Positions 2,237 to 35,301 of a stretch of DNA of 64,000 nucleotides are shown piece after piece. This DNA is from Candidatus Omnitrophota bacterium (GTDB lineage Bacteria; Omnitrophota; Gorgyraeia; 2-01-FULL-45-10): assembly GCA_041648975.1 (NCBI GenBank), contig JBAZNZ010000002.1:8222-72221 (forward strand), read 5' to 3'. The first letter of the stretch is position 1. The number at the start of each line of letters is the position of its first letter. The position numbers and the translations under genes were made by a program. The notes beneath the pieces are model-generated. The model searched no databases and was not told the origin of the DNA. It saw only the letters and a list, made by a program, of their open reading frames with translations.

Positions 2237-2272
2237 ATTTTTTACTTATAACTTAAAACTTACGACTTATAA

Positions 2273-3070
2273 CTATTTTATGAGCTGCTCCAGGTAATCG
2301 TCTTTCTGCTGGAAAAACCTTATAGGCCCGTCGGGGCTGCCCATGACGAACTGCTGGACCATCTGGTTCGAACTCTTCTTTATCTGCTCCGGCGTCCCCA
2401 CCTCGAGGACTTTTCCTTCGTAAAGCATCGCTACCCTGTCCGCTATGGAAAATACGCTCTTCATATCGTGGGTCACCACGATGCTCGTTATGGCCAGTTT
2501 CTTGGAAAGATCTATTATGAGTTTGTCTATGACGCCGGCGACTATCGGGTCTAAGCCCGCCGTCGGTTCGTCGTAAAAGACTATCTCCGGGTCCATCACT
2601 ATCGCGCGCGCCAGCCCCACCCTCTTCCTCATGCCTCCTGAAAGCTGGCTCGGCATGAGATCCTCGAAGCCCCTCAAGCCCACAAGCTCCAGCTTCATCT
2701 TTACCACTATATCGATAACGCTCCTGTCGAGCCTGGTATGCTCCCTGAGCGGAAGGCTGACGTTCTCTCCGACAGTCATCGAATCGAAGAGCGCTGACGA
2801 CTGGAACGACATCCCGATCTTCTTCTTGACCTTGTCCATCTCGTCTTCGTTCAAAACGCTGAGGTCTTTTCCCAGCACGTGGACCTTGCCGGAATCGGGT
2901 TTCAGCGCGCCGATGAGATGCCGGAGGAATGTGCTCTTGCCGCACCCCGAGCCCCCCATTATCACGAACGTCTCGCCCCTGTATATCTCAAGGGATATGC
3001 CGTTCAGTATGGTCCGGTCGCCGAATCTCTTCACTACCTTATCGGCCTTTATTATAATCTCTTTTTCCAT
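2273..3070 (-). CDS. mlaF: ABC transporter ATP-binding protein MlaF
   Basis: Walker A motif GGSGCGKST, ABC signature LSGGMRKRVGLARAI, Walker B FYDEPTAGLD. About 265 aa, typical for MlaF. Confidence 0.85.
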   Translation of the reverse strand: MEKEIIIKADKVVKRFGDRTILNGISLEIYRGETFVIMGGSGCGKSTFLRHLIGALKPDSGKVHVLGKDLSVLNEDEMDKVKKKIGMSFQSSALFDSMTVGENVSLPLREHTRLDRSVIDIVVKMKLELVGLRGFEDLMPSQLSGGMRKRVGLARAIVMDPEIVFYDEPTAGLDPIVAGVIDKLIIDLSKKLAITSIVVTHDMKSVFSIADRVAMLYEGKVLEVGTPEQIKKSSNQMVQQFVMGSPDGPIRFFQQKDDYLEQLIK

Positions 3071-3082
3071 ATATTCATCGGC

Positions 3083-3877
3083 CTATTTCTGAGTAAAATA
3101 GAATAATCCCGTCAATATACAGTCAAACAGGATTATCAATATGAAACTGGTAACCACGCTGAGCGTCGTCGCCTTGCCCACGCCTTCGGCTCCGCCCTTC
3201 GCCCGAAGGCCCATGTAACATCCTATCAAAGAGATTATGATCGCGAATACGACGCTCTTGATGAGCCCGGTCCAAACGTCTTTCCACTGCATAAATTGGA
3301 AAGAGAACGTCAAATACCTGTAAGGATCGAGGCGGAGATTGAACACCCCGACTAAAAATCCTCCGAAGATGCCTGTCATATCGGCAACTATAGTAAGACA
3401 CGGCAGCATTACAAGAAGCGCCAGGAACCGCGGCACAACGAGGAACCTTATCGGGTTGAGCGCCATAGTCTCAAGCGCCTCTACCTGTTCCGTTACCTTC
3501 ATCGTCCCAAGTTCAGCCGCAATGGCCGCGCCGACGCGCCCGGCCACGACAAGCGCAGTAAGAACCGGCCCGAGCTCCCTGGCAATGCCTACGCTCACCA
3601 TCGGCGCCACGAATATATTCGCCCCGAACCTGGACAGCTGGTAAGCGCTCTGCATGGCTATAACTATCCCGGTGAAAAAGGATACGAAGAAAGCTATGAG
3701 GAAAGAGCCGGCACCGGCAAATACCATCTGGCTGAATATGCTTTCGCTCTTCACGAATTTGTTCTTCAAGGGCCCGGCTATGAGCCAATAGAGCGTATCA
3801 AAAAATAGGGCCAGCACATCCGAGATCTGCCGGCCCGTATTTAAAATAATGCCGCCTGTCTTTTCAAATAAGTTCAT
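3083..3877 (-). CDS. mlaE: ABC transporter permease MlaE
   Basis: 264-aa polytopic membrane protein with the MlaE/Ttg2B pattern. Gene order mlaE-mlaF-mlaD. Confidence 0.85.
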   Translation of the reverse strand: MNLFEKTGGIILNTGRQISDVLALFFDTLYWLIAGPLKNKFVKSESIFSQMVFAGAGSFLIAFFVSFFTGIVIAMQSAYQLSRFGANIFVAPMVSVGIARELGPVLTALVVAGRVGAAIAAELGTMKVTEQVEALETMALNPIRFLVVPRFLALLVMLPCLTIVADMTGIFGGFLVGVFNLRLDPYRYLTFSFQFMQWKDVWTGLIKSVVFAIIISLIGCYMGLRAKGGAEGVGKATTLSVVTSFILIILFDCILTGLFYFTQK

Positions 3878-3892
3878 AGTATGACGGCCTCG

Positions 3893-4228
3893 CTACATGA
3901 ACGTTGAGATGGCTTCTTCTTCGTCTGCCATTATTTCAAACAGCTTCTCGAGCTTGGTTATCTCGAAGAGGCTCTTTATCTTTGGAGAAAGGCCGGTTAA
4001 CCGCAGTCTTCCGCCGTAAGCTTTCATATTCTTTAGTGTCTCCACCAGAGTCGCAAGCCCGGATGAGTCCACATAAGTGACCTTGGTCAGGTTTATAACT
4101 ATCTTTGGCGTCTTTTGGGAAAGCAGCTTGTCGAAGGACTTCTTTATAGCCGGACTTGAGTTTATATCTATCTCGCCGTCTACATTACATACAGTCAATC
4201 CGTTCTTGGATTCTATCTTAACGGCCAT
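3893..4228 (-). CDS. STAS-domain protein (anti-sigma-factor antagonist, SpoIIAA/RsbV-like; possible MlaB analogue)
   Basis: 111 aa. The conserved phospho-serine context VTYVDSSGLATLV is typical of anti-anti-sigma STAS proteins. Confidence 0.75.
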   Translation of the reverse strand: MAVKIESKNGLTVCNVDGEIDINSSPAIKKSFDKLLSQKTPKIVINLTKVTYVDSSGLATLVETLKNMKAYGGRLRLTGLSPKIKSLFEITKLEKLFEIMADEEEAISTFM

Positions 4229-4255
4229 AAATCATCTCCTTTTCTGCTTCGCCTT

Positions 4256-4591
4256 TCACGCGTCTAATGTTCTGAATCTTTTTATCATCCTTATTCTATT
4301 TCCTGATTCATTGAATTCGACCTTGTCCATCAATTTCAATATAAGATATACGCCTCTGCCGGAATTCCTGAGGATGTTTCCATCCTTGGTAGGATCCGGA
4401 AGGAGCTTATGGTCAAAACCCGCTCCCCGGTCCTCGACCTCGATATTAAGGATACCGTCATCGACCCTGCAATCCACCTTGACCGGTAATTTCCTGTTCG
4501 ATCGGTTGCCGTGGACGATCGCGTTCCTGACGGCCTCTTCCACGCATAACTTTATATCGAACAGCGCTTCTTCTTCCAATTTATATGGCAA
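4256..4591 (-). CDS. RsbW/SpoIIAB-like anti-sigma factor serine kinase (GHKL ATPase); TTG start
   Basis: N box EEAVRNAIVHGN, G1 box VEDRGAGFD, G2 box GRGVYLILKLMDKVEF. The start codon is TTG at 4591-4589. The upstream in-frame stop coincides with the accA stop, and no ATG/GTG lies between them. Confidence 0.65.
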   Translation of the reverse strand: MPYKLEEEALFDIKLCVEEAVRNAIVHGNRSNRKLPVKVDCRVDDGILNIEVEDRGAGFDHKLLPDPTKDGNILRNSGRGVYLILKLMDKVEFNESGNRIRMIKRFRTLDA

Positions 4592-4675
4592 AAGGCTTTT
4601 AGTGATCTTCGAAGAGATTTCTTTTACATACTTTATCTCGCTGGGAACAGTTATAATAATCGCTTTAGCTCCGTT

Positions 4676-5653
4676 CTATTTTTCCGTGAATTTACCGATC
4701 GCCCGTATCCTGGAGTACCTCATATCCAGCAATTTGGTCCCGGACAGGCCCTTTAACTCGGCCAGGTCCTTCTTTATTACCTTCTTTATGTTATCGGCCG
4801 ACTCCTGAGGATTCCTGTGCGCCCCGCCGAGAGGTTCTTTTATTATACCATCGATAATTTGCATTTCAAATAAATCTTTCGCCGTCAATTTCAGCGCTGC
4901 GGCCGCGTCAGGCGCTCTCGAGCGCTCCTTCCACAATATGGCCGCGCACCCTTCGGGGGATATCACCGAATAATATGAATTTTCAAGTACATATGTCCTG
5001 TCGCCGATACCTATGCCGAGCGCCCCGCCGGATCCGCCTTCCCCGATAACAAATATGATCACCGGCGTAGCCAGGTCGGCCATCCTTCTTAAATTGTACG
5101 CGATCGCCTCAGCCTGGCCCCTCTCTTCAGCGCCTATCCCCGGATACGCTCCCGGCGTATCAATAAACGAAATTACCGGCAGGCTGAACTTTTCGGCCAT
5201 CTTCATCACCCGGATAGCCTTCCTGTACCCTTCCGGATGCGCGCTGCCGAAATTCCTTTCAAGGTTCTCTTTGGTATCCTTCCCCTTCTGGTGTCCTATA
5301 ACTACGATATTTTCACCGCCCACTTTCGCCAGGCCGCAGATCATCGCCTTGTCGTCGGCGTAATGCCTGTCGCCGTGGATCTCTATGAAATCCGTCATCA
5401 TCATATCTATATAGTCAAGTGTATACGGCCTTTTGGGATGACGGGCTATCTGCACCCTCTGCCACGGAGTCAGGTTATCATATATCTCTTTCTTTATGCG
5501 AGAGAGCTTCTCCTCGAGTCTTGTTACCTCCCCGGATATGTCTATGTCCTTATGGGCGGTGAACCCTCTGAGCTCGCCTATCTTCCTCTCCAGCTCTAAT
5601 ATGGGCTTCTCGAATTCCAACCCGTAAACATGTATAGCCATGTGATACTCCAA
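4676..5653 (-). CDS. accA: Acetyl-CoA carboxylase carboxyltransferase alpha subunit
   Basis: 325 aa. Conserved AccA blocks: PKRPYTLDYI, FIDTPGAYPGIGAEERGQAEAIA, GEGGSGGALG. Confidence 0.9.
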   Translation of the reverse strand: MEYHMAIHVYGLEFEKPILELERKIGELRGFTAHKDIDISGEVTRLEEKLSRIKKEIYDNLTPWQRVQIARHPKRPYTLDYIDMMMTDFIEIHGDRHYADDKAMICGLAKVGGENIVVIGHQKGKDTKENLERNFGSAHPEGYRKAIRVMKMAEKFSLPVISFIDTPGAYPGIGAEERGQAEAIAYNLRRMADLATPVIIFVIGEGGSGGALGIGIGDRTYVLENSYYSVISPEGCAAILWKERSRAPDAAAALKLTAKDLFEMQIIDGIIKEPLGGAHRNPQESADNIKKVIKKDLAELKGLSGTKLLDMRYSRIRAIGKFTEK

Positions 5654-5668
5654 TAGATTCCGCGATAA

Positions 5669-5790
5669 GTTACGTAACGTTACATAAAGTTACGTAAGGT
5701 TACATAATGTTACCGCCAGCACTCAATATTTTTAAAACTCGCAACCTTATGTAACCTCATGGAACCTGATGTAACCTTATGCAACATCCG
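5669..5790. repeat. Paired inverted arrays of a 10-bp tandem repeat (GTTACRTAAN x4.5, spacer, then NTTATGTAAC-like x4) in the accA promoter / L,D-transpeptidase terminator region
   Basis: 5669-5714 reads aGTTACGTAAcGTTACATAAaGTTACGTAAgGTTACATAAtGTTACC. 5743-5790 reads aaCCTTATGTAACCTCATGGAACCTGATGTAACCTTATGCAAC, the reverse-complement units. The 10-bp period equals one helical turn. Confidence 0.8.
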
Positions 5791-5797
5791 CGAATCT

Positions 5798-6739
5798 TTA
5801 GTCGACGATCAGCACTTCAGTCCCCTCCGGGACTATGGTATATAACTCTTCGACTTCCGCGTTCTTCATCCTCACGCAGCCTTCTGTGACGCTCCTGCCT
5901 ATCGATTCGGGCTCTATCGTCCCGTGGATCCCGTACCCCTCTTTGGATATACCGAGCCACCTGGAACCGAGCACATTCTTAGGATCCCCGGACTGAACCA
6001 CCCCTCCGGTGGGCGGATACCATGGCGGATCGACTATCTTGGTCGTGATCTTGAACGTGCCTACCGGCGTGCATGAATTTTTGCCGGTAGAGACCCTGTA
6101 TGTCTTCAATATATTTTCATTGTCCTTAAGCGTCAATATATTCTGTGACTTATCGACCGCTATGCTGAACCTGGATTTATTAATCTTGATATTTTCCCCT
6201 ACCCTGATAGCGTTGTTCTTAAGGCCGTTCGCCTTTGCTATCAACTCTACGGTGGTGCCGTATTTTTTCGCGATCCTGGTCAGCGTGTCGCCCTTCTGCA
6301 CCTCATAAGAAACAGAGTCCGGGGTCGGTATAGGCGAGAACAATATCTGCACGTTCACATTCTCCAGCGCCTCCTGCGCTTTCAATATCTCCCCCGACGC
6401 CGGGAACTTCTCTACTAACTTCTGGTAGGCGTCCCTCGCGTTCAGCAGCTCGCCGGATTTTTCGTATGTGGATCCGAGCAAAAAATAAGCCGTCAGGGCT
6501 TCGGCCGATCCGGGCGACTTCACTATAAGTATCTTCAGGTTCTTTAACGCTGTTTCGGTCTGGCCCTGCTCGAGCAATTTCTTGATGTCGCCCAGCTTCA
6601 TGACGGATTGATTAATAACCGCCGCGGACGACGCAGCCGCCCCTGATGGGGCTTTCGTTGAAATTATAATGTACCCTAGGACAGAGGCCGTTATTAAGAA
6701 TAATATAACCGCGCCGACAATCAGGAATCTCTTATCCAT
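5798..6739 (-). CDS. LysM and TPR-containing L,D-transpeptidase (YkuD domain)
   Basis: Signal/TM N-terminus and TPR-like region. LysM motif YEVQKGDTLTRIAKKYGTTVELIAKANGL. C-terminal YkuD catalytic motif GIHGTIEPESIGRSVTEGCVRM. Confidence 0.8.
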   Translation of the reverse strand: MDKRFLIVGAVILFLITASVLGYIIISTKAPSGAAASSAAVINQSVMKLGDIKKLLEQGQTETALKNLKILIVKSPGSAEALTAYFLLGSTYEKSGELLNARDAYQKLVEKFPASGEILKAQEALENVNVQILFSPIPTPDSVSYEVQKGDTLTRIAKKYGTTVELIAKANGLKNNAIRVGENIKINKSRFSIAVDKSQNILTLKDNENILKTYRVSTGKNSCTPVGTFKITTKIVDPPWYPPTGGVVQSGDPKNVLGSRWLGISKEGYGIHGTIEPESIGRSVTEGCVRMKNAEVEELYTIVPEGTEVLIVD

Positions 6740-6764
6740 TTAATATTGCCCCCGTTAAAAGTTA

Positions 6765-7214: not shown

Positions 7215-7288
7215 ATTAGCTTTATATTATAATATATAAAATCCGGTTATTCAAATAGAATATAGCATATAACGCGAGGAGGGCGGTC

Positions 7289-7840: not shown

Positions 7841-7896
7841 GTCGATCTACAACGTGCCGAGGTCTCCGACCGAGGCCAAGCCAAATAAGCCTTCTA

Positions 7897-8454: not shown

Positions 8455-8480
8455 ATATAGCTCCTATTAAATTACGGTTC

Positions 8481-8590
8481 TAAGTAAAAAGTCAAAAGGA
8501 AAAATGTAAAAGTCGTGTGTCGCTGTCGCGACCTTAAATATAGGTGCGAAGTACACAACACTTTTGCCTTTTCACTTTTTCCTTTTACCT
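8481..8590. repeat. Inverted arrays of AAAAGTN heptamer repeats forming a long imperfect hairpin between the mnmE stop and the folE start
   Basis: Left arm taAGTAAAAAGTCAAAAGGAAAAATGTAAAAGTCgtgtg (8481-8517). Right arm cacaACACTTTTGCCTTTTCACTTTTTCCTTTTACC (8553-8590). Confidence 0.7.
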
Positions 8591-9982
8591 TTATTTTCCG
8601 ATACAGAATTGCTCAAATATCCTATCGAGGATATCATCCGAGACAGACTTGCCGACTATGAGCCCCAGATGATACAGCGCTTCCTTCAAATCGACAGCGA
8701 CCAGCTCGCAGGGCGTTCTCTTTGCAAGCGCCTTCTTAACTGATAGCATATTATCGAGCGCCCTGTCAAGAAGCTCTTTGTGGCGCGCGTTCGCCACTAC
8801 TGCCGATTCGCCCTGGTCATACTCTCCGCTCCATACGGCCCCAAGCAACTCCTTCTCCAGCGTTCCTATATTACGTCTCTTCCCAACCGATATCTCGACT
8901 ATCTTATCATCCTTGAAAAACTTTTTGGCTTTTTTCGCGTCCGTCTTTTTCGGAAGGTCGGATTTGTTTATCACCACTATCTTCTTCTTGCCGAGTGCCA
9001 ATTTTATTATATCCAGGTCTTCTTTTCCGATCGCGGTAGAGCCGTCGAGCACGAGGATCACTATATCCGCGAGATCCAGGTACTTCTTGCTCCGCTTCAC
9101 GCCCTCCTTATCGAGCGCGTCCTTCGCATCGGCTATGCCCGCCGTATCCACAAGCCTGACTGGAACACCTTTAAGGTTTATGACTTCTTCCACAGCGTCT
9201 CTCGTTGTTCCCGGTATAGGAGAGACTATGACCCTGTCCCTGTTCAACAGCAGGTTCATCAGGCTTGATTTGCCGACGTTCGGCTTGCCGCAGATTATCG
9301 CCAGCACCCCTTCCCTTAGCACTGCGCCGCTCCGGTATGTGCGGACAAGATCCTGCAATCCGCGTATAACGCCTTCAACCTTTTTTACCAGCCCGGAATT
9401 CTCTATTATCTCTATGTCTTCTTCCGGAAAATCTATAGAGGCCTCTATCTGCGAGGCTGCATCGATCATGGAATCAAGTATCGCGTTCACCTTATTCGAA
9501 AGTCCGCCGTCAAGCTGGCTCATCGCGACCTTCAGGGATCCTTCGGTCTTGGATCTGATGACGTCCAGGACCGCTTCCGCCTGCGCCAGGTCGAGCCTGC
9601 CGTTAAGGAACGCGCGCTTCGTAAATTCTCCGGGCTCGGCCAGACGCGCCCCGCGTTCCAATATCAGTTCAAGGGCCCTCTTCGCCGCCTGGATTCCTCC
9701 GTGGCAATTTATCTCCACAACATCCTCTTTCGTATAGCTCTTCGGAGCCTTCATAACGGTCAAAAGGACTTCATCAACTACCCTGTTTTTTTCATCTACT
9801 ATGTGGCCGTAATGGACTGTGTAAGTCTTAAATTTGGAAGGCTTATCTTTATCTTTTGAAGCGAATACGGCATCCGCGATCATGAGCGCCTTTGGCCCGC
9901 TGAGCCTGGCTATGCTTATACCTCCCTCGCCTATCGGCGTGGAGAGCGCGGCAATAGTATCGTCTGGACTATTATTTTTCAT
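8591..9982 (-). CDS. mnmE: tRNA modification GTPase MnmE (TrmE)
   Basis: 463 aa. G domain GKPNVGKSSLMNLLL...DTAGI. Ends in the characteristic CIGK tetrapeptide. Confidence 0.9.
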   Translation of the reverse strand: MKNNSPDDTIAALSTPIGEGGISIARLSGPKALMIADAVFASKDKDKPSKFKTYTVHYGHIVDEKNRVVDEVLLTVMKAPKSYTKEDVVEINCHGGIQAAKRALELILERGARLAEPGEFTKRAFLNGRLDLAQAEAVLDVIRSKTEGSLKVAMSQLDGGLSNKVNAILDSMIDAASQIEASIDFPEEDIEIIENSGLVKKVEGVIRGLQDLVRTYRSGAVLREGVLAIICGKPNVGKSSLMNLLLNRDRVIVSPIPGTTRDAVEEVINLKGVPVRLVDTAGIADAKDALDKEGVKRSKKYLDLADIVILVLDGSTAIGKEDLDIIKLALGKKKIVVINKSDLPKKTDAKKAKKFFKDDKIVEISVGKRRNIGTLEKELLGAVWSGEYDQGESAVVANARHKELLDRALDNMLSVKKALAKRTPCELVAVDLKEALYHLGLIVGKSVSDDILDRIFEQFCIGK

Positions 9983-11289: not shown

Positions 11290-11298
11290 GGGATAAGA

Positions 11299-11386
11299 TA
11301 GTTACCAGTTACCAGTTACCAGTTACCAGAATAGTCAAACTGCCACTTTTCTTTTCTGGTTACTTCCTTTCTGGTTTCTGGTTACT
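11299..11386. repeat. Inverted arrays of AGTTACC heptamer repeats (x4 and x3) between the purH stop and the folC start
   Basis: 11299-11329 reads AGTTACCAGTTACCAGTTACCAGTTACCAGa. 11355-11386 reads tCTGGTTACttcctttCTGGTTTCTGGTTACt, the complementary units. Confidence 0.8.
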
Positions 11387-11393
11387 ATTGTTT

Positions 11394-14996: not shown

Positions 14997-15043
14997 GAGA
15001 TATATTATAGAGGAAATAACCGCAGAATTCTATTCATAAAAAA

Positions 15044-15077
15044 AGCGAGGGGACGTCTTAAAACGCCCCCTCGATGA
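15044..15077 (-). terminator. Intrinsic terminator downstream of the 15098..15778 membrane-protein gene
   Basis: GC hairpin GAGGGGACGTCTTAAAACGCCCCCTC, followed on the minus strand by a T run (plus strand shows AAAAAAA upstream). Confidence 0.6.
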
Positions 15078-15097
15078 AAAAATAAATCCTGACTATC

Positions 15098-15925: not shown

Positions 15926-18310
15926 TTATCCGCACTTTGAATAACCGCAGGACTTGCAGATCATACACCCTTCGACATGCCATAAGGCGCTTCCGCAGTC
16001 CGGACATACGCCGACTATATTACCGGTCTTGGATTTTACGGCCTGCCCGCCTGTAATCGCCCCACCGGGCAGGCGGGCCTGCCCGCCTGACATTGCCCCC
16101 TCGGGCAGGCGGGCCTTTGCCACTCCTCCGGACCCTTCGGACGCTATCTGGGCGCTATTTTGGCCTGCTTGCGGCGCCGCAGTATCGGTCTCAGGCGCCT
16201 TTTTAGCCTTCTCATCCTGCATCCTTCTCTCTATAACGCGCGCTATGGCGTCGCTGCAGGAGAATATCCTGCCGCCTTTTTCCCAGCTGGGCGACGGGCA
16301 CCTTATCCCGCGAAGCTGCTCGATGATGGAATTCGTATCTATCCCGCTCCTGAAGGCCAGAGAAACGAGCCTTCCGATAGCCTCGAGTTGGCTCATCGCG
16401 CATCCGCCGGCCTTACCCATGGAGGTAAAGAGCTCAAACGGCAGGCTCTTTTCATCTACATTTATCGTGACATAGAGATTTCCGCATCCTGTAGCTATCT
16501 TGGTCGTAGTGCCGGTTATGACATTAGGCCTTGGCCGCGGCACTATCTTCGTTTCGGAAGGCGCTTTTATATCAGGCGCAGCTGATCCGGATATATTCAA
16601 TACCTGCTCTTCCCTGGATTTATCCCTGTAAATAGTCACGCCTTTGCAGCCGGTTTCATATGCCAGCATATATATAGAGTAGACGTCCTCCGTGGTAGCT
16701 TCGGTGGGAAGATTGACTGTCTTTGATACCGCGTTATTCGTGTACTTCTGGAAAGCCGCCTGCATCTTTATATGCCAGACGGCTTCTATGTCATGAGCCG
16801 TAACAAAAAGCTTCTGGGCGTCTTCCGGCACCTGGTCGAGTCCCCTGACAGTTCCCTTTTCCGCGATAATATTCATAAGTTCCGTTGAATAGAAGGACCT
16901 CTTTTCGGCTACTTCTTCAAAATAAGGATGGACTTCCACGAATTTCGTATTGTCCAGTATGTTCCTTATGTAGGAAATAGCGAATACAGGCTCTATACCG
17001 CTGGAACAATTGGCAATGATAGATAAAGTCCCTGTCGGCGCTATAGTCGTAAGCGTTGCGTTCCTGAGCGGCCTCGCGCCCGGCACATCGTATATGCTTC
17101 CGCGGAAATTCTGGAAAGCCCCTCTCTCTGCGGCCAGGTTCCGGGAAGCGGCCTGCGAAGTCTCCAGTATGAACTTCATTATCTTTTCAGCCATCTGTGT
17201 AGCGTTCTCCGAATCGTAGCTCACCCCTAACATCAGGAGCATGTCGGCGAAACCCATTACGCCGAGGCCGATCTTACGATTCGATTTGGTCGTATCCTCT
17301 ATCCTCTTCAGGGGATAGCAGTTCATGTCTATGACATTGTCAAGGAAGTGGACAGCCTTTATTACGGTATTTCCCAGCTTTTTCCAATCTATCTCGCCGG
17401 AGGATATCATCCTGGCTAAATTTATGGATCCCAGATTGCAGCTTTCATACGGAAGAAGAGGCTGTTCCCCGCAAGGATTGGTCGATTCTATCTCACCCGC
17501 CTTCGGCGTCGGGTTATCCCTGTTGATCCTGTCTATAAAGACTATCCCCGGCTCACCGTTCTTCCATGCCATTCTTATTATCAGGTCCAGCACCTTCCTC
17601 GCGTTCAATTTCTGCACGCATTTCTTTGTGTGAGGATCGATGAGATCGTAATCTTCACCCTTTATGGCCCTCTTTATGAAATCCTCGGTGATCGCCACCG
17701 AGATATTAAAATTGGTTATCTCCTTGTCGCTCTCTTTACACGTCACGAACTCGATTATATCCGGATGATCCACCCTCAGGATGCCCATGTTGGCGCCCCT
17801 GCGCGTCCCGCCCTGCTTGACCGCCTGGGTCGCGGAATTGAAGACCTTCATAAAAGATACCGGACCGCTTGATATGCCGCCCGTTGACCGTACCGGAGAA
17901 TTTTTTGCGCGCAGCCTGGAAAAAGAAAAACCGGTGCCTCCGCCGGATTTATGTATGAGGGCCGTATCTTTGATCGTCCCGAATATCGACTCCATCGAGT
18001 CATCTATGGACAGGACAAAACAGGCCGATAACTGCTGGAGATCCCTGCCCGCGTTCATCAGCGTGGGAGAATTCGGAAGGAATTCCAGGTTAGCCATCAT
18101 ATCGAAAAATTCGCGCTCGGCGCGCGCGACCTGCTCATCCGTTTTTCCGTAGTACTTATCGGCCGTCGCTATGTTCGACGCTACCCGGTGGAACAACTCC
18201 TCGGGCGTCTCTATGACCTTACCGTCGTCATCCCTTTTCAGGTACCTCTTCTCTAATACCTTCCTGGCGCTTTCCGACAACGCCGCCTTTCCGCCGCTCT
18301 TCTCTTCCAT
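15926..18310 (-). CDS. nrdJ: Adenosylcobalamin-dependent (class II) ribonucleotide reductase
   Basis: 794 aa. RNR catalytic core present (e.g. PCGEQPLLPYESCNLGSINL). C-terminal zinc ribbon CPDCGSALWHVEGCMICKSCGYSKCG, typical of monomeric NrdJ. Confidence 0.9.
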   Translation of the reverse strand: MEEKSGGKAALSESARKVLEKRYLKRDDDGKVIETPEELFHRVASNIATADKYYGKTDEQVARAEREFFDMMANLEFLPNSPTLMNAGRDLQQLSACFVLSIDDSMESIFGTIKDTALIHKSGGGTGFSFSRLRAKNSPVRSTGGISSGPVSFMKVFNSATQAVKQGGTRRGANMGILRVDHPDIIEFVTCKESDKEITNFNISVAITEDFIKRAIKGEDYDLIDPHTKKCVQKLNARKVLDLIIRMAWKNGEPGIVFIDRINRDNPTPKAGEIESTNPCGEQPLLPYESCNLGSINLARMISSGEIDWKKLGNTVIKAVHFLDNVIDMNCYPLKRIEDTTKSNRKIGLGVMGFADMLLMLGVSYDSENATQMAEKIMKFILETSQAASRNLAAERGAFQNFRGSIYDVPGARPLRNATLTTIAPTGTLSIIANCSSGIEPVFAISYIRNILDNTKFVEVHPYFEEVAEKRSFYSTELMNIIAEKGTVRGLDQVPEDAQKLFVTAHDIEAVWHIKMQAAFQKYTNNAVSKTVNLPTEATTEDVYSIYMLAYETGCKGVTIYRDKSREEQVLNISGSAAPDIKAPSETKIVPRPRPNVITGTTTKIATGCGNLYVTINVDEKSLPFELFTSMGKAGGCAMSQLEAIGRLVSLAFRSGIDTNSIIEQLRGIRCPSPSWEKGGRIFSCSDAIARVIERRMQDEKAKKAPETDTAAPQAGQNSAQIASEGSGGVAKARLPEGAMSGGQARLPGGAITGGQAVKSKTGNIVGVCPDCGSALWHVEGCMICKSCGYSKCG

Positions 18311-18806: not shown

Positions 18807-18904
18807 CTCACCCCTCCTTTCTGATCGATCGCGAAAAAATTATATCACGCCGCAATTTCTGTTGCAAGAAAAAAGATTAAAAAAAATTTTCTGCTACTAC
18901 TATT

Positions 18905-19155
18905 CTAACCTAAGCTTAGTTATGTGAGCACTGAAAATATTTCCCCTACGCTCTAACTACGGGGTCGGTCTTTGTTCAGTCGAAAAACGGGAGCCTGCGG
19001 CAACTCGGCCGGCGTCCCGCCTTCGGCGGGACGATAATCCGGCCTCGAACAGCCTTGGCTCTTTTAATATCAAAACATTGTTATATATAACCGTTTTTCT
19101 TCTTCACAAAGACCTAATATTTTCAATGTGCTCATCATAACGTCGGCTTAGGTTA
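18905..19155. mobile_element. MITE-like rod-shaped palindromic element, copy 1 (251 bp, 38-bp imperfect terminal inverted repeat)
   Basis: Terminal repeats TAACCTAAGCttagTTATGtGAGCACtGAAAATAT and ATATTTTCaaTGTGCTCATcATAAcgtcgGCTTAGGTTA. Nested internal complementarity ggtctttgt/acaaagacc, gaaaaacgg/ccgtttttc, ggccgg/ccggcc. Apex hairpin GTCCCGCCttcgGCGGGAC. Confidence 0.7.
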
Positions 19156-27267: not shown

Positions 27268-27337
27268 GGGATATAGTTTACACCAATTTATATCTTCTTA
27301 CAAGTTGAAACAGAAAAATATGCGGGAAAAATATGTA

Positions 27338-29134: not shown

Positions 29135-29235
29135 TATATTATATAATTATCTCCTTTAGGTCAAGTTAAAAGAGGACAAGAAATCCTTTCGCTTCGTTCA
29201 TCTGCACGTCAAATAAATTTTATGGGTCCTGCTTC

Positions 29236-29574
29236 TAACCTAAGCCTCGTTATTCGAGCACTGAAAATATTCCCCAGCGCTCTAATACTTGGGTCGGTCT
29301 TTGTTCAGTCGAAAAACGGGAGCCTGCGGCAACTCGGCCGGCGTCCCGCCTTCGGCGGGACGATGATCCGGCCTCGAACCCTCCTTCGTCCCGCCACCTT
29401 TGGCGGCGGTACTTCGGAGGGATTTCGCCGAAGCAATCTATGGTAATACTACGGAATGCGAAGGCGAACAGCCTTGGCTCTTTTAATATCAAAACATTGT
29501 TATATATAACCGTTTTTCTCCATCACAAAGACCTAATATTTTCAATGTGCTCATCATAACGTCGGCTTAGGTTT
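29236..29574. mobile_element. MITE-like palindromic element, copy 2 (339 bp; carries a 90-bp nested insertion at 29380-29469)
   Basis: Same terminal repeats and interior as copy 1. The extra segment, itself hairpin-rich, is flanked by a CGAAC direct repeat. Confidence 0.7.
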
Positions 29575-30052
29575 ATAGCTGCCCAGACATCAGTAACTCC
29601 GGGACGTTTCTATCTGGAAATTTTTCGGGTGACGCGGCTTGAGACTTTTTATGATAAGGGCGAAGTATGGATGGGGTGTCCCGAATACAGCAAGTGTAGT
29701 TCGGGCATATAGATACGCGCTTATATATACCACGGGATTGTAAACCCGTTCCTGCCTTTATGCTTACGGGTGGCAGGAACGGATGGGGTGCCCGAATGTT
29801 AATGACTGTGGTTCGGGATACATAGATACGCGCATAGAATATACCGATATCTAATGACTGAGAGTCAAGTTAGACCGTTATCTACCCCGCATAGTATAAA
29901 GAAATAGGGAGATTGTAAACCCATACGAGCCCTTTAAAAGAAAAAGTCTCAGCCGCGGCAGGACCCGAAAAATTTAATCCTACATGGGCTAGTGTCCGGA
30001 AGCACGCGGCAGACTGGGGATGGGCGAAAAATTTCAAATTTCAAAATTTCTG

Positions 30053-30081: not shown

Positions 30082-30115
30082 ATTACTGCAGTTAAGAAGG
30101 ATAGGAGATCTTGGA

Positions 30116-30151
30116 CCGTAAGGCTGGATTGACCGACCTTGCGGTTTTTTT
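30116..30151 (+). terminator. Intrinsic terminator/attenuator inside the cspA leader
   Basis: Stem CCGTAAGG ... CCTTGCGG (one G-U pair) followed by TTTTTTT at 30145-30151. Confidence 0.55.
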
Positions 30152-30255
30152 ATTCGCTGTCGCTGTCATAGGCGAATAATCCGCCAACGCTTTATGGCGG
30201 ATGATCATTATCCCGTATTTGCTGCAATTTTCAGCGAAAGGAGGCAACAAGATCA

Positions 30256-30456
30256 ATGGTTAAAGGAAAAGTAAAATGGTTCTCAAACGAGAAAGGTTAT
30301 GGGTTTATTACTCCTGAAAACGGAAATGATGTATTCGTGCATCACACTTCGATTCAGGGTGAAGGCTATAAGTCTTTGGAGGAAGGCCAGGATGTCGAGT
30401 TAGATATCGTGCAGGGCCCCAAAGGCGAACAAGCTGCAAACGTAGTGAAGTTATAA
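30256..30456 (+). CDS. cspA: Cold-shock protein (CspA family)
   Basis: 66 aa. RNP1 and RNP2 motifs KGYGFI and VFVHH. Confidence 0.9.
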
Positions 30457-30474
30457 CCGGGTGAGAATAATAAA

Positions 30475-30512
30475 CCATCTTCCTGATTTTATTCAGGAGG
30501 GTGGTTTTTTTA
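30475..30512 (+). terminator. Intrinsic terminator after cspA
   Basis: Stem CCATCTTCCTGA / TCAGGAGGGTGG followed by TTTTTTTA. Confidence 0.65.
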
Positions 30513-30554
30513 TTTCAAATACCGCTCAATTGACAAGGCCGCTTTAAGCGTGCT

Positions 30555-31298
30555 ATGATATCCCGTATGACACAGGCTATAGTCACTATAGCAAAAAATT
30601 TCATGAATCTGCTGTATCCTATGCGGTGTTACGCCTGCGGGAAGGATCTCGAAGCGTTGAACAAATACGGCGTCTGCGACGACTGCGTTAGCCGCATACG
30701 AAAGAATCCAGCGCCGTTCTGCCGCATTTGCGGCCGCCCCGTGGAAAAAAGTTCATGTCTGTGCGCCGAATGCAAAAGATCGGCCCCGTTTTTCGACAGG
30801 GCGTATTCGGCGTACCTTTATGAAGGCGTACTTAAAGAACTTATCCATAAATTCAAATATAATGGCAAGATACGGTTATCCCGCATATTGTCAAAACATA
30901 CGGCTGACTTTATTGAAGATAACGGCGATATAGTTAAAGATATAGACATTATAACCTGCGTTCCGCTGCAAAATAACCGTTTAAGGGAGAGAGGCTTCAA
31001 TCAGTCCAGGATACTGGCTTTCAATATATCCGAAAGGGCCGGGATTCCGTTTGCCGATACATTGGAAAAGCGCGTATCTACAAGACACCAGAATGAGCTG
31101 TCCAGGGACGAAAGGCTGTCCAACCTGAAAGGCGCATTCGCGGTCAGGGCTGAGGCAGACATCTATGGCCTTGCTGTATTATTGATAGACGACGTGATGA
31201 CAACGGGGGCGACCCTGAGCGAATGCTCCAGGGCGCTCCGGGATGCCGGCGCCAAAGAGGTGCGTTGTCTTACACTGGCGCGGGGCGTTGGAAATTGA
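30555..31298 (+). CDS. comFC: ComF-family phosphoribosyltransferase-domain protein
   Basis: N-terminal double zinc-finger cysteines (CYACGK...CDDC, CRICGR...CAEC). C-terminal PRTase motif LLIDDVMTTGATL. Confidence 0.75.
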   Translation: MISRMTQAIVTIAKNFMNLLYPMRCYACGKDLEALNKYGVCDDCVSRIRKNPAPFCRICGRPVEKSSCLCAECKRSAPFFDRAYSAYLYEGVLKELIHKFKYNGKIRLSRILSKHTADFIEDNGDIVKDIDIITCVPLQNNRLRERGFNQSRILAFNISERAGIPFADTLEKRVSTRHQNELSRDERLSNLKGAFAVRAEADIYGLAVLLIDDVMTTGATLSECSRALRDAGAKEVRCLTLARGVGN

Positions 31299-31359
31299 CA
31301 TCAACTTAATCACTTAATTACTTAATCGCTTAATAGCTAAGTCGGACATAACTCCATAC

Positions 31360-32451
31360 ATGAAGATAATAGATAAATATATAGTCAAGGGTTTCGTGGG
31401 GCCTTTTATATGGTGCACATTTGTATTCCTTATAATGGCCGTCATAATAGATATATTCTCGTTTATCGACGATATTGTTAAGTTCAAGATACCGGCGATG
31501 TCGATCTTCAATTTTTATCTATACTATTCGCCTACAATATTCATACAGGTAACGCCGATGGCGATACTCCTCTCAACCATATATATACTAAGCAACCTCA
31601 ATAAGCATAACGAGGTGACCGCTATGAAATCGAGCGGCATAAGCCTGTGGCGAATAATGGCCCCCATACTGATAATAGGAACGATCGTCGCGTCAGTCAT
31701 ATTCATAGTCAACGACAGGGTAATACCGCCCACATCCAGGAAGGCCGCCGATATCAGGCGTTATGAGCTCGAGAAAGAAAAGCGCAAACAGAGCGCTCAG
31801 AAGATAGTGGAGAACGTCGCGATATACGGTTCCGGGAATAAGATAATTTTTGCGCGGAACTACGATACCGAAAAAAAGACCCTGGGGGATATAATAATAC
31901 ACCAGCACGACAAGGCCGAGAATCTCGTGTCCAAGATCACTGCCCAAAGCGGCACATGGACAGAGGACGGATGGAAGTTCAAAAAGGTCATAATGTGGAA
32001 GATAGATAATTCGGGCAGGATACTGCAGGAACCCTTATTCTTCGATGAGAGGATAATCGCCCTTAAAGAGAAGCCCTCCGATTTCGCTAACCGGGAATGG
32101 CGCGCCGATTACATGAGTCACAGGGAGTTAAAGAATTACATAAAAAATTTTGAGGGCACTGGAACAAGGCTGATTAAGAGCCTGCAGGTAGACCTGCATT
32201 ACAAGGTAGCTTTTTCTCTCATAAGCCTTATAATCATACTGATAGGGGCGCCGTTCGCTTTGATAACTACCCGCGGCGGCGTTTTGATAGGCATGGGCAT
32301 GAGCATAGCGATAGGCCTCCTCTACTACGCCTTTATCGCCATAAGCCTCGCGTTCGGAAAAGCGGGGTTTCTGCCTCCTGTAGTTGCGGCATGGTCCGGC
32401 AACGTCGTATTCACTATCCTCGGAATATATCTGATAAATAAGAGAAGTTAG
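31360..32451 (+). CDS. lptG: LptF/LptG-family lipopolysaccharide export permease
   Basis: 363 aa. Start MKIIDKYIVKGFVGPF, typical of YjgP/YjgQ permeases. Six TM helices with a central periplasmic domain. F versus G assignment uncertain. Confidence 0.7.
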   Translation: MKIIDKYIVKGFVGPFIWCTFVFLIMAVIIDIFSFIDDIVKFKIPAMSIFNFYLYYSPTIFIQVTPMAILLSTIYILSNLNKHNEVTAMKSSGISLWRIMAPILIIGTIVASVIFIVNDRVIPPTSRKAADIRRYELEKEKRKQSAQKIVENVAIYGSGNKIIFARNYDTEKKTLGDIIIHQHDKAENLVSKITAQSGTWTEDGWKFKKVIMWKIDNSGRILQEPLFFDERIIALKEKPSDFANREWRADYMSHRELKNYIKNFEGTGTRLIKSLQVDLHYKVAFSLISLIIILIGAPFALITTRGGVLIGMGMSIAIGLLYYAFIAISLAFGKAGFLPPVVAAWSGNVVFTILGIYLINKRS

Positions 32452-33779
32452 TCCGCGCCTTCGTGGCTTATCTCTACTTTACCTTCGGGCATCTTACTCT
32501 TCCTGGATATGACCCTTCTTAATGTCGTATGTTTTAATACGATATCTTTTGTGTTCCCGACGTTCAATTTTTCAAAAAGGAACTCGAACTTCGCCTCTAC
32601 CTCTTTCGCGATCGCGTCCCGCGTGTCGGCTGGAAGGCCAAGAATATCCTTCTTAAAAGCGCCGAGAGCTTTCTTCCTGGAACTGTATATGAACTGCTCG
32701 TCGGTCTGGTCGGCCTTCTTTTCTCCGGCCATGTTCTTCCTTATCCAGTCGTATATCCTATCCTTCAGTTCTTTCGGGAAATGGCCGGATTCATACACCA
32801 TGTTCTGGAACTCTGTCGCGAGATGCACCTCCGCGGTCCCGACCTCGGGGAATTTTCCGAACGCCTCAGCGGGAAGGGTCGAGGCTCCGTGCTGGACGGC
32901 CCCGGCGAGGGCGTATTCTTCGCGCGCTATCTTGGACAGGTTCTTCAGGGTGTCAAAATCCAGTTTAACCTTGGCTATCGTGCCGTCAGGCAAAACGACC
33001 CCGCCATGCGACGTGCCGGTCTGTATGCTTATCTTCGATATACCACATCTGCCCTTGCGAAGCCTCTCTTTATAACCTTCCATAAATGCGCGCAGATCCT
33101 CGGGGGTCGAATTTTTGCTGCCGACCTCCCCTATCTCCCCGCCGACAGATACCTCTATACCGCGCGGCTGGTTCTGCCGGATAAAGTTAGTAAGCTTGGC
33201 GCAGACTTCGTAGTTGAGCTCCTGCTGTTTTTTAATAGAGCTTTTAGATAGATCAACAAGGGTGGACGAGTCTATATCGATATTGTAAAAACCGCCTTCC
33301 ATCGCCTGGATTATCAGGGCTTTTATGCTCTCCAGCTCCTTTTCAGGATCCTTCTCGTAATTCTTGTGGCTTACCTGAAAATGGTCTCCCTGGATGAATA
33401 TGGGGCCCTTCCATCCTTCTTTCATGGCCGCGGCCAGACATACGGCGGTATATTCAACCGCAGGCTGGTTTGTATATCCCATTTCCGATTTTGCTATTTC
33501 AAATATAAAAGGTCCGGCATTATTGCGCTTAGCCACCCTGAATATCGCCTTTGCCAGATCATAGGTAAGCGTCCTCAGGTTTATCGCGGGCACCGTGAAA
33601 GCCGCGGGAAATTCTCCCTTACCGCGCGCCATGTAGAACTCATTTATGCTCGACGGGTATACCCCGCCTTTGTAAGCCAGCCCCGCGATCTTCTTTGCGA
33701 TTTTTTTCTTATCATCAATATTTTCCGTCAGCGCAAGATCCAGCGCCAACTTGTCCATATCTAGCGGTCTTCGTCCCAT
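32448..33779 (-). CDS. fba: Class II (metal-dependent) fructose/ketose-bisphosphate aldolase, long form
   Basis: Class II aldolase motifs GDHFQ, TGTSHG, QHGAST. 443 aa. Confidence 0.7.
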   Translation of the reverse strand: MGRRPLDMDKLALDLALTENIDDKKKIAKKIAGLAYKGGVYPSSINEFYMARGKGEFPAAFTVPAINLRTLTYDLAKAIFRVAKRNNAGPFIFEIAKSEMGYTNQPAVEYTAVCLAAAMKEGWKGPIFIQGDHFQVSHKNYEKDPEKELESIKALIIQAMEGGFYNIDIDSSTLVDLSKSSIKKQQELNYEVCAKLTNFIRQNQPRGIEVSVGGEIGEVGSKNSTPEDLRAFMEGYKERLRKGRCGISKISIQTGTSHGGVVLPDGTIAKVKLDFDTLKNLSKIAREEYALAGAVQHGASTLPAEAFGKFPEVGTAEVHLATEFQNMVYESGHFPKELKDRIYDWIRKNMAGEKKADQTDEQFIYSSRKKALGAFKKDILGLPADTRDAIAKEVEAKFEFLFEKLNVGNTKDIVLKHTTLRRVISRKSKMPEGKVEISHEGAD

Positions 33780-33805
33780 TTTAAGTCAATCTCCTCTCTT
33801 AAGTT

Positions 33806-33936
33806 AAATTCGAAATACGAATATCGAAATCCGAAACAAATTCTAAATCCTGATTTCCAAAACATCACTTCTTATCATTAGAATTTTCGAACATTCGGAT
33901 TTGTTTCGAATTTCGGATTTCGAGCTTCGAATTTTA
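33806..33936. repeat. Inverted arrays of CGAAATN-type heptamer repeats between the ahcY stop and the fba start
   Basis: Left AAATTCGAAATACGAATATCGAAATCCGAAACAAATTC. Right GAATTTTCGAACATTCGGATTTGTTTCGAATTTCGGATTTCGAGCTTCGAATTTTA. Confidence 0.7.
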
Positions 33937-33940
33937 CCCT

Positions 33941-35197
33941 TTATGTCCCCATCTCCCAGCTATCCAGATATTTCTCCTGCTCCTCGGTAAGAGTATCTAT
34001 CTTTATGCCGAGAGACTCAAGTTTAAGTTTCGCGATGTTCTTGTCTATGAAATCCGGGACTTTATATACCTTTTTGCCGAGTTTTTTGTAATTCTTGGCT
34101 AAATATTCGCAGGCCAACGCCTGGTTCGCGAAGCTCATGTCCATTACGCTGGCAGGATGGCCCTCAGCGGCGGCGAGATTGATGAGCCTGCCTTCGCCCA
34201 GCAGGTTTACGCGCCTGCCGTCCTTCAAGGTGTATTCATCGACAAATTCCCTGACCTTGCGTTTTCCCTTAGCGATCTTTTCCAGGGCCGGTATGTCTAT
34301 CTCAACGTTAAAATGGCCGGAATTGGCGACTATCGCGCCGTCTTTCATAAGCTCAAAATGCTCTTTCCTTATGACGTTTATATCGCCGGTCAGCGTAACG
34401 AATACATCCATCTTTTTGCAGGCCTCTCTAAGAGGCATCACATTAAATCCTTCCATGACAGCCTCGAGAGCCTTTAACGGATCGACTTCGATTATCGTCA
34501 CATTGGCGCCCATGCCTCTTGCGCGCATCGCAACGCCTCTTCCGCACCAGCCATAGCCGCATACCGCGAAATTCGATCCAGCCATAAGGACGTTGGTCGA
34601 GCGTATTATGCCGTCGATGGTAGACTGGCCGGTCCCGTAACGGTTGTCGAACAGGTGTTTTGTATCCGCGTCGTTCACGGCGATTATAGGGTAAAGAAGG
34701 AGATTCCTCTTCTCCATGCTCCTTAAACGTATAACGCCGGTCGTCGTCTCTTCGGTCCCGCCCAGCATATTTTTGGCCAGCGAGCCCTTAGATTTGTGGA
34801 CAGTCGAAACGAGGTCCGCGCCGTCGTCCATGGTTATGTTCGGCGAGGTTTCGAGGACGCTGTTTATGTGACTGTAGTATTTTTTGTTGTCCTCCCCCTT
34901 TATGGCGAAGGTGCTTATCTTCATGTCCTTCACCATCGAGGCGGCGACGTCATCCTGCGTACTCAACGGGTTAGAAGCGCATACGGACACAAGCGCCCCC
35001 CCTTCTTTTAAGGTAAGGGCGAGATTAGCCGTCTCTGTCGTTACGTGGAGGCAGCACGATACCTTCAACCCTGCAAGCGGCCTTTCTTTCCTGAAATGTT
35101 TCCGGACGAGCTGCAGGACGCGCATATACTCGTTCGCCCACTCTATGCGCAATTTACCCTTTCCAGCGAGTTTTAGATCTTTGACATCATATTGCAT
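33941..35197 (-). CDS. ahcY: Adenosylhomocysteinase
   Basis: 418 aa with an NAD-binding [10 protein letters not shown] block, conserved throughout. Confidence 0.9.
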
Positions 35198-35213
35198 GGT
35201 ATATCTCCGCGTT

Positions 35214-35301
35214 AGTTATAAGTTGTAAGTTTTAAGTTTTAAGTCGCAAGCTATCAACAATTCGCTTACGACTTACAACTTACGACTTACGACTACTTAA
35301 C
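35214..35301. repeat. Inverted arrays of TAAGTTN / ACTTACN heptamer repeats between the metK stop and the ahcY start
   Basis: Left gttaTAAGTTGTAAGTTTTAAGTTTTAAGTCGCAAGC. Right GCTTACGACTTACAACTTACGACTTACGACTACTTAAC. The right arm overlaps the last metK codons. Confidence 0.8.

Follow-up and report, generated by a model that had tools for sequence, protein, structure and literature searches.

What are the short tandem repeats that stand, mostly as paired inverted arrays, at gene junctions of an Omnitrophota genome, and how did they come to be there? We addressed this question in a 64-kb stretch of DNA (contig JBAZNZ010000002.1; hereafter the window, in whose numbering its coordinates are given) from an organism that its AhcY homologues place in Candidatus Omnitrophota. 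An earlier note on the window had described such arrays at six same-strand junctions and regarded them as locally generated. Comparison with related genomes reveals that the hairpins built from these arrays were inserted, in particular lineages, into co-directional spacers that are otherwise tight. The hairpins are of a known kind, the heptamer hairpins of cyanobacterial STRRs (short tandemly repeated repetitive sequences) and of rRNA intervening sequences (IVSs), now found in a new phylum. Probably, the arrays are copies of dispersed hairpin elements of this STRR/IVS-stem kind, resembling miniature inverted-repeat transposable elements (MITEs), which would be transcribed within mRNAs and there be cut by RNase III or block 3' exonucleases, rather than acting as terminators.

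Tandem arrays at the gene junctions of the window

All six junctions (J1 to J6) carry arrays at the positions that the earlier note had given, and the genes there are all on the minus strand. Pfam searches name the flanking genes ABC/MlaF–MlaD (J1), YkuD-type Ldt–AccA (J2), MnmE–GTP cyclohydrolase I (FolE; J3) and PurH–Mur-ligase/FolC-like (J4); those at J5 and J6 are MetK–AhcY–Fba, and all match the names used previously. An inverted partner array is present at five of the six junctions (J2 to J6), giving long imperfect hairpins. J1 (2237..2272) is single, with four heptamers (sense TTATAAG TCGTAAG TTTTAAG TTATAAG) directly 3' of the ABC/MlaF-like stop codon. The J2 hairpin (5654..5797; arms 5669-5713 and 5741-5785) fills the Ldt(YkuD)–AccA spacer, beginning with the base that follows the TAA stop codon; its 10-nucleotide units, GTTACRTAAN, are each palindromic, and an outer clamp of 10 bp pairs 5654-5664 with 5789-5797. 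In the MnmE–FolE spacer, J3 (8455..8590; arms 8481-8512 and 8559-8592) has the sense units (G/T)NAAAAG and CTTTTNN, the first of which includes the TAA stop codon, and its inner stem is more GC-rich. J4 (11290..11393), between the PurH and FolC-like genes, pairs a perfect AGTTACC array of 4.3 copies (11299-11329) with degenerate GGTTWCT units (11355-11386); 5-bp stems alternate with 2 × 2 mismatches. The AhcY–Fba spacer holds J5 (33780..33940; arms 33803-33846 and 33894-33937; unit CGAAATN/NATTTCG), and the MetK–AhcY spacer holds J6 (35198..35292; arms 35214-35246 and 35263-35294), in which four sense TCGTAAG units and CTTAAAA/CTTACAA units form 6-bp stems with 1–2-nucleotide mismatches, the TAA stop codon overlapping the first TAAG.

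Two additional arrays were found. J7 (31299..31340, plus strand) contains 3.9 copies of ACTTAATC (31304-31334) directly 3' of the ComF-like stop codon in the ComF–LptF/G spacer and has no inverted array. J8 (37359..37393, minus strand) is a short CTTTTCC-type array (37360-37393) across the 26-nucleotide PGI/NTP-transferase spacer and the end of the PGI gene, and is a weak member of the class. Tandem Repeats Finder reported a period of 7 with 4.1–4.6 copies at J1, J3, J4, J5 and J6, a period of 10 at J2 and a period of 8 for the J7 array.

The recurrent architecture is real. Arrays with periods of 6–10 nucleotides number 12 in the 6,437 nucleotides of intergenic DNA (about 10% of the window), whereas 200 shuffles that preserved dinucleotides gave 0.2 on average and never more than 2; the 57,563 nucleotides of coding DNA contain one, so that 12 of the 13 arrays are intergenic. 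We also agree with the earlier note that an array of transcription-factor sites is unlikely. The unit, on the other hand, does not differ at every locus as had been claimed, since TAAG/CTTA is common to J1, J6 and J7, GTTAC/GTAAC to J2 and J4, and CTTTT to J3 and J8.

Orthologous junctions in related genomes

Comparison of orthologous junctions, proposed in the earlier note, proved decisive. Eight relatives were compared, with AhcY proteins 82–84% identical to that of the window and with the same gene order (PTS-EIIA, CofD, HPr, PtsI, PGI, NTP-transferase, MetK, AhcY and Fba, with LptF/G and ComF on the opposite strand). The MetK–AhcY and AhcY–Fba spacers are 95 and 161 nucleotides long in the window, and 36/62, 23/36, 30/14, 18/28, 58/38, 27/40 and 18/68 nucleotides long in seven of the relatives. 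No array was found at these junctions in the six relatives for which DNA was read, the 30/14 contig being represented by gene coordinates only. The eighth relative, L085 (L-numbers denote the loci and contigs compared), carries hairpins at both AhcY junctions (spacers of 79 and 100 nucleotides), built from a different unit, ATAGCGN/NCGCTAT. The ComF–LptF/G spacer, which holds the J7 array, is 61 nucleotides long in the window versus 1–22 nucleotides in syntenic relatives. The short, array-free spacers of the relatives show that the hairpins were gained in particular lineages and that these junctions work without them; the hairpins are dispensable for the host operons.

Related hairpins in other genomes

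Among 80 AhcY-anchored loci (GTDB species), paired inverted arrays of 7–8-nucleotide units were found in several phyla. Carriers include a deltaproteobacterial metagenome-assembled genome (MAG) with five hairpins (L006), Terriglobia (L013, L060, L074 and others), Verrucomicrobiota (L058) and Desulfobacterales (L017 and L042). Over all loci we collected 50 hairpins without an open reading frame (ORF), having periods of 7 (34 hairpins), 8 (12), 9 (3) and 10 (1); 31 lie at co-directional, 5 at divergent and 4 at convergent junctions. The median distances for the 31 co-directional hairpins are 6 nucleotides from stop codon to array and 19 nucleotides from array to next start codon. The sense strand was the more stable in 18 cases and the less stable in 9 (Wilcoxon P = 0.036; sign test P = 0.12), a mild bias that agrees with a constraint at the RNA level.

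When the window hairpins were compared with these loci by BLAST, J5 matched a hairpin of L017 (91% identity over 46 nucleotides, E = 2e-10), and the second arm aligned too. The L017 hairpin occupies a MetK-like/AhcY spacer of a Desulfobacterales MAG, the AhcY of which is only 69% identical. A pattern scan of IMG/VR for CGAAATNCGAAATNCGAAAT yielded further J5 relatives (L227, L219/L200, L206 and L211), all matching beyond the pattern itself. Both arms of the J5 family could be aligned in six rows, representing four loci, two of them on both strands; more than 30 columns are invariant, with the core ..CGAAATNCGAAACAAAT.. / ..ATTTGTTTCGGATTTCG.., and the stems are kept by sequence identity, only one pair showing a double change. 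An irregular unit, GAGCTTCG, is common to J5 and L227, which argues for common descent and not for convergent slippage. J3 matches hairpins of L138, L130 and L259, more weakly than J5 matches its relatives, and the arms of J6 match several IMG/VR loci that had been pre-selected by the search pattern. Judged by these alignments, J5 clearly and J3 more weakly have relatives in unrelated genomes.

Within single contigs of L085 and L006, one unit core recurs at at least four sites. Single-linkage clustering of all heptamer consensus units, allowing at most one mismatch, chained everything into one group and was dropped for that reason. In the Terriglobia loci L016, L022, L025, L026, L037, L041, L045 and L069, a heptamer array of 3–4 units lies between the ahcY stop codon and a canonical GC-rich terminator (GGGCGGC..GCCGCCC TTTT); each species has its own unit at a constant position, and in L023, L027 and L074 the array is instead paired as a hairpin. 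Terriglobia also contain a dispersed hairpin family with the 8-nucleotide unit CACNGAGG (TTTTTCACCACGGAGGCACAGAGGCAC ... GTGCCTCCGTGGTGA), which occupies different sites in several genomes (L016 9852-9931; L020 9826-9904; L013 4896-4977; L122 1775-1797; and upstream of ahcY in L068 and L041). The Desulfobacterales MAG L042 has nine copies of TGACCAA upstream of ahcY (9919-9981); read in reverse complement this is TTGGTCA, presumably the STRR2 unit of cyanobacteria.

Anatomy of the hairpins and the question of termination

On the sense strand, the window hairpins begin 0–9 nucleotides past the upstream stop codon and end 10–35 nucleotides before the next start codon, a gap into which a ribosome-binding site (RBS) fits. 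The stems are 25–45 bp long and consist of 5–7-bp helices broken by 1 × 1 or 2 × 2 mismatches at the variable position of each unit; the loops between the arms are 28–74 nucleotides long and contain no PF05635/TIGR02436 ORF. The spacers that hold the five hairpins are AT-rich (32–38% GC). Predicted minimum free energies of the sense-strand RNA range from -30 to -55 kcal/mol, and four of the five hairpins are more stable on the sense than on the antisense strand, with gaps of 13.5 kcal/mol at J2 (-54.7 versus -41.2) and 10.1 kcal/mol at J5 (-44.3 versus -34.2).

The suggestion that the arrays might be unusually long terminator or attenuator stems found no support. A U-tract was sought 3' of all five hairpins on the sense strand and none was found, while ordinary GC-rich intrinsic terminators with U-tracts are present in the window at 14997-15097 (CGAGGGGGCG..CGTCCCCTCG followed by T7) and at 30458-30554, after the csp gene. 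The canonical-terminator reading was therefore dropped on anatomy; the absence of hairpins from six of seven relatives and their divergent and convergent sites elsewhere also speak against it. In an Rfam scan of the window only four tRNAs reached the gathering score, and no hairpin was matched. We also rejected the notion that the 7-nucleotide period serves as a stop device in three frames, because several units (that of J5 and several in Terriglobia) contain no stop codon. A further repeat, three copies of AAATTTC at 30028-30050, lies directly upstream of the good sigma-70-like promoter (TTGACA..TATATT) of a cold-shock gene (30257-30457); it may lie outside the hairpin class, as an A/T tract resembling an UP element.

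Arrays around S23p/Avd-like genes

In L085, the ATAGCGN-type unit also forms inverted arrays (2612-2643 and 2997-3028) around a 116-aa ORF between two tRNA genes. The encoded protein, referred to here as S23p, belongs to PF05635 (23S rRNA intervening-sequence protein) and TIGR02436 (four-helix-bundle protein). A weak similarity links it to Avd, the accessory protein of diversity-generating retroelements, a relationship of S23p proteins also given in the literature; among solved structures the nearest is 2GSC, which was deposited with five chains. The MetK–AhcY hairpin of L085 (9918-9990) corresponds to the 5' end of this cassette (38/43) joined to its 3' end (23/24), non-repeat bases included, and the ORF-less hairpins of L085 look like internal-deletion derivatives of the S23p cassette. 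The cassette (2540-3130) lies within a processed tRNA precursor transcript, which parallels the rRNA site of classical IVSs. L006 carries an S23p gene too (40% identical); inverted arrays with a TTAG core enclose it, and the ORF-less hairpins of L006 use the related units GAATTAG, GGGTTAG and GAGTTAG. A hairpin is present in 17 of 87 AhcY-anchored loci, including all three that have an S23p gene or a fragment of one (Fisher one-sided P = 0.006).

A metagenome scan with two S23p proteins returned 80 loci, 69–84% identical to L085. Inverted flanks were found in 48 of the 70 loci in which both flanks were present (cut-off, a score of at least 16; shuffled flanks score about 8.7), and the best period of the downstream flank was 7 in all 70. 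Flanks were read for 32 of the 70: the units there combine an AGCG core with three variable bases, and in nearly all of the 32 the ORF ends ..CCTATACGC|TAA ACGCTAT.., so that the stop codon lies within the array. The contigs (434 kb) carry 321 arrays, 277 of them with a period of 7, and 34 AGCG arrays lie more than 250 nucleotides from the ORF. Many other cores resembling units of the window (CGAATNT, AAAAGNN/CTTTTNN, CCAGAAA, TAAGT and AAGTTAC) also occur on these contigs, some of them nested. Different unit families are concatenated or nested in L116 (93-291 and 2267-2568), L162 (94-292 and 2268-2587) and L100 (2477-2821), for example with AGCG arms around AGTAT and AAGTAAT arms; such nested arrays form composite hairpins, as if the elements insert into one another.

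A tblastn search of plasmids with S23p gave 34 records, mostly from Nostoc, Calothrix, Trichormus, Anabaena and other heterocystous cyanobacteria, plus Riemerella, Gemmatirosa and Azospirillum. Heterocystous cyanobacteria are the classical STRR organisms. In all 14 plasmid regions that were read, at least one side of the S23p gene carries a 7–8-nucleotide array, placed at the start codon or overlapping the stop codon. About 10 of the 14 have inverted arrays (GGTGACA/TGTCACC, AGTCAGG/CCTGACT, GGGTGTG/CACACCC, AAAGGGA/TCCCTTT and AAGGTTY/RAACCTT); among the others, one has direct arrays, (AAAAGCT)16 and (AAAAGCC)10, two have unrelated units on the two sides and one has a 3' array only. Several plasmid S23p genes with heptamer or octamer arrays are located inside cyanobacterial CRISPR-cas operons, where they separate cas6 from cas4 or cas10 from cmr3 (L170 604-963; L172 601-969; L178 501-857). 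S23p proteins with the same flanking unit are 68–85% identical, and those with different units at most 65% (median 41%). Cassette arrays most often have four units, with a range from 3 to more than 10, counts that lend no support to the idea of five units per array for a pentamer.

The arrays are much commoner than the S23p gene. No S23p gene was found in the window by tblastn, jackhmmer, a 17-seed hidden Markov model applied to six-frame ORFs, or Pfam scans of small ORFs. None stands beside CGAAAT or GTAAGT arrays in 105 IMG/VR loci (about 1 Mb), which rules out an obligatory link in cis between arrays and gene, and no extra S23p paralogue occurs within 4 kb on either side of arrays with other cores in L090–L169. 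Any action of S23p would have to be in trans. In the literature searched we did not find a general statement that PF05635 genes are flanked by heptamer arrays, which may nevertheless be noted elsewhere; a functional partnership between S23p/Avd-like proteins and arrays is a possibility, and the more novel one. We raise tentatively, and with considerable doubt, the further proposal that a widespread selfish cassette could exist in two forms: a non-autonomous one, represented by heptamer hairpins (including the cyanobacterial STRRs and those of the window), and an autonomous one, a gene for an S23p/Avd-like pentameric four-helix-bundle protein bracketed by the same arrays. Each S23p subfamily might recognize its own 4–5-nucleotide core on RNA or single-stranded DNA and promote the spread, maintenance or processing of the arrays.

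Origin and function of the hairpins

The explanation that we consider probable, that the window arrays are copies of dispersed hairpin elements, can be set out as follows. Each element would have two arms that are inverted tandem arrays of 7-nucleotide units (sometimes 8 or 10), with a conserved core of 4–5 nucleotides and 2–3 variable positions. In tight spacers it would insert at the only place where it is tolerated, between the stop codon and the RBS. Replication slippage would then alter the number of units and homogenize each arm, while hairpin-templated correction or selection might roughly maintain the complementarity of the arms. The hairpins would be transcribed within the flanking mRNAs and would fold as imperfect A-form helices of 25–45 bp, either cut by RNase III or shielding against 3' exonucleases, and the stabilities of neighbouring cistrons would thereby be uncoupled. 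That the hairpins are part of the mRNA, fold in vivo and are either cleaved by RNase III or protect 3' ends we infer by analogy, because the stems exceed 22 bp and because IVSs and the hmw genes provide precedents.

Several observations weigh against this explanation. No two hairpins of the window could be aligned as copies of one another by self-BLAST, and no relatives of J2 or J4 were detected in the loci searched. The matches of J3 and J6 are short (22–29 nucleotides) and weak, some were pre-selected by pattern, and low-complexity repeats can converge. Neither a transposase nor a target-site duplication nor defined element ends were found in the hairpin neighbourhoods and J5-family flanks. 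A role at 3' ends is impossible for the five of 50 hairpins at divergent junctions, the strand asymmetry is modest (sign test P = 0.12), and the RNase III or stabilizer role rests on analogy.

The rival favoured by the earlier note, in which a small inverted repeat at each site expanded into a hairpin through 7-nucleotide slippage and template switching between arms, with no relation to elements elsewhere, seems to us unlikely. Units do differ between window loci, the arms of J6 (TCGTAAG versus TTTTAAG) and J4 (AGTTACC versus AGWAACC) are separately homogenized as independent slippage would give, and heptanucleotides are, according to a published summary, the commonest long class of simple sequence repeats in many prokaryotes, for which polymerase slippage has been proposed. 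However, both arms of J5 and an irregular unit in it recur in hairpins of other phyla and of viral contigs, the L085 hairpins closely copy the ends of an S23p cassette, non-repeat bases included, and window unit types (CGAATNT, AAAAGNN/CTTTTNN, CCAGAAA and TAAGT) recur on other metagenome contigs. With the J3 matches to L138, L130 and L259, these relationships tell against the view that the arrays are no dispersed repeat family. Slippage itself retains a role, as copy number varies in orthologous S23p cassettes (3 to more than 10 units) and between Coxiella strains; what lacks support is purely local generation. Quite unlikely, in our judgement, is that the heptamers are iterated RNA or single-stranded-DNA sites at which an oligomeric protein binds (an S23p/Avd-like pentamer, for example, or cold-shock proteins), with the hairpin secondary. 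The flanking of S23p genes by arrays (48/70 metagenome and 14/14 plasmid loci), the tracking of S23p phylogeny by the unit (same unit, at least 68% identity; different unit, at most 65%), the hairpins in all three S23p-bearing loci among the 87 (P = 0.006) and the reported binding of CspB to heptamer repeats, one protein per heptamer, are consistent with this putative binding. Yet the S23p gene is in neither the 64-kb window nor the roughly 1 Mb of viral loci with CGAAAT or GTAAGT arrays, and an ORF and arrays moving jointly as one cassette would explain their co-inheritance equally well.

We regard as very unlikely that the hairpins are selected cis-regulatory RNAs (terminators, attenuators or translational couplers) evolved for these operons. 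Their tight position between stop codon and RBS and the somewhat better folding of the sense strand fit such a role, and STRR hairpins have been proposed to act on termination, stability or coupling. Against it stand the AT-rich stems lacking a U-tract, with canonical terminators used elsewhere in the window; the absence of hairpins from the same junctions in six of the seven syntenic relatives checked; the functionally unrelated flanking pairs (Ldt–AccA and MnmE–FolE); and members of the class at divergent and convergent junctions. An artefact of assembly or sequencing in low-complexity intergenic DNA is next to inconceivable. The source is a metagenome assembly, and tandem repeats are prone to mis-assembly; however, two independent assemblies of the same organism (ENA contig L001 and Logan contig L002) match across the hairpins with zero indels and are the same base for base over J5 and J6, which excludes mis-assembly. 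Read length also exceeds array length, and finished plasmids from cultured cyanobacteria have arrays of the same architecture.

In annotation, these hairpins are not to be labelled as terminators or as riboswitch-like RNAs of a novel kind; they are insertions, and the spacers that they lengthen in some lineages are not lengthened in sister lineages. Heptamer hairpins, mostly seen as a cyanobacterial curiosity, are found here in Omnitrophota, Terriglobia, Desulfobacterota-type MAGs, Verrucomicrobiota and viral contigs, and single hairpin families extend beyond one phylum. If the link between PF05635 and arrays holds, STRRs, rRNA intervening sequences and stand-alone Avd-like genes would be one type of element; if the selfish-cassette proposal were true, a large orphan protein family would gain a function, and the STRRs and rRNA intervening sequences, long unexplained, a mechanism.

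Other repeats in the window

Two long gene-free regions (18880-19154 and 29211-29573) contain a dispersed repeat of about 280–360 nucleotides with 89–98% identity. The second copy carries about 85 extra nucleotides, and both end in inverted sequences, GGTCTTTGTTCAGTCGAAAAACGG ... CCGTTTTTCT..CACAAAGACC; the repeat, which has no Rfam match, could be a MITE or a structured RNA. At 43995-44252, 2.1 copies of a 120-bp unit (97% identity) begin inside tRNA-Arg (43930-44006), and related segments lie beside tRNA-Lys and tRNA-Leu/Gly (43015-43159; 42521-42629 versus 43441-43549), so that the spacers of this four-tRNA cluster are built of repeated modules. A GC-rich 36-bp tandem repeat of 2.1 copies, palindromic in character inside, is located at 16040-16116 within a 794-aa ORF (15926-18310). 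Two paralogous gene blocks with 68–72% DNA identity (53715-54359 versus 61311-61955; 54479-54758 versus 62515-62794; 56045-56260 versus 63330-63545) suggest that a multi-gene cluster has been duplicated here.

Comparison with known systems

In the literature searched we found no direct description of inverted heptamer arrays with locus-specific units. Among known kinds, STRR hairpins, S23p-bearing rRNA IVSs and the hmw heptamer hairpin come nearest. In filamentous cyanobacteria, 7-bp STRR arrays form hairpins between the co-transcribed hupS and hupL genes, where transcript stabilization, translational coupling or termination has been suggested. Like the window arrays, STRRs are tandem 7-bp units, intergenic, with several unit families per genome and hairpins between co-transcribed genes; unlike them, the window arrays belong to an Omnitrophota host and one hairpin (J2) is based on a 10-nucleotide unit. 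The window units appear to differ from those of STRR1–3. The TAACTGA direct heptamers of Beggiatoaceae, Cyanobacteria and Bacteroidetes are likewise intergenic, near start codons and patchy over phyla, for which horizontal spread has been suggested, with a suspected post-transcriptional role. They differ from the window arrays in being almost all without an inverted partner (169 direct versus 1 indirect).

Intrinsic terminators share with the window hairpins a stem-loop 3' of a stop codon; the window hairpins differ in their length (25–45 bp), AT-richness, periodic mismatches, lack of a U-tract and position inside co-directional gene strings. At the H. influenzae hmw1A locus, a transcribed (ATCTTTC)n array in the 5' untranslated region forms a long hairpin that is cut by RNase III, and changes in repeat number need both the hairpin and RNase III. 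A heptamer array as one arm of a long RNA hairpin is thus common to both systems, but at hmw1A, a phase-variation locus with at least 10 units, only one arm is repetitive and the other is a G-rich tract, whereas the window arrays have 4–5 units and the same length in both assemblies.

The S23p-bearing 23S rRNA IVSs of Coxiella and Leptospira and the stand-alone S23p/four-helix-bundle cassettes (PF05635, TIGR02436) resemble the window hairpins in that their terminal inverted repeats pair into a long stem. In the Coxiella 23S IVS this stem measures 28 bp, and 3–4 GACAGAT heptamers lie upstream of an S23p ORF; the number of heptamers varies between strains, and RNase III cleaves at the first repeat. 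In the S23p cassettes read here, 7–8-nucleotide arrays abut the start codon and overlap the stop codon. Unlike these elements, the window hairpins are ORF-less and lie outside rRNA, and the window has no S23p gene. Repetitive extragenic palindromic (REP) sequences, bacterial interspersed mosaic elements, REPINs (hairpins formed by REP doublets) and bacterial MITEs are, like the window hairpins, small, ORF-less, intergenic and dispersed, often just 3' of genes. REP-type elements are mRNA stabilizers in E. coli. Unlike them, the window hairpins have arms that are internally tandem-repetitive with a 7-nucleotide period, their copies diverge fast by unit turnover, and neither a REP-associated tyrosine transposase (RAYT) or other transposase nor target-site duplications or conserved termini were identified for them. 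A relation between autonomous and non-autonomous forms is suggested by L085, with its ORF-bearing cassette and ORF-less hairpins.

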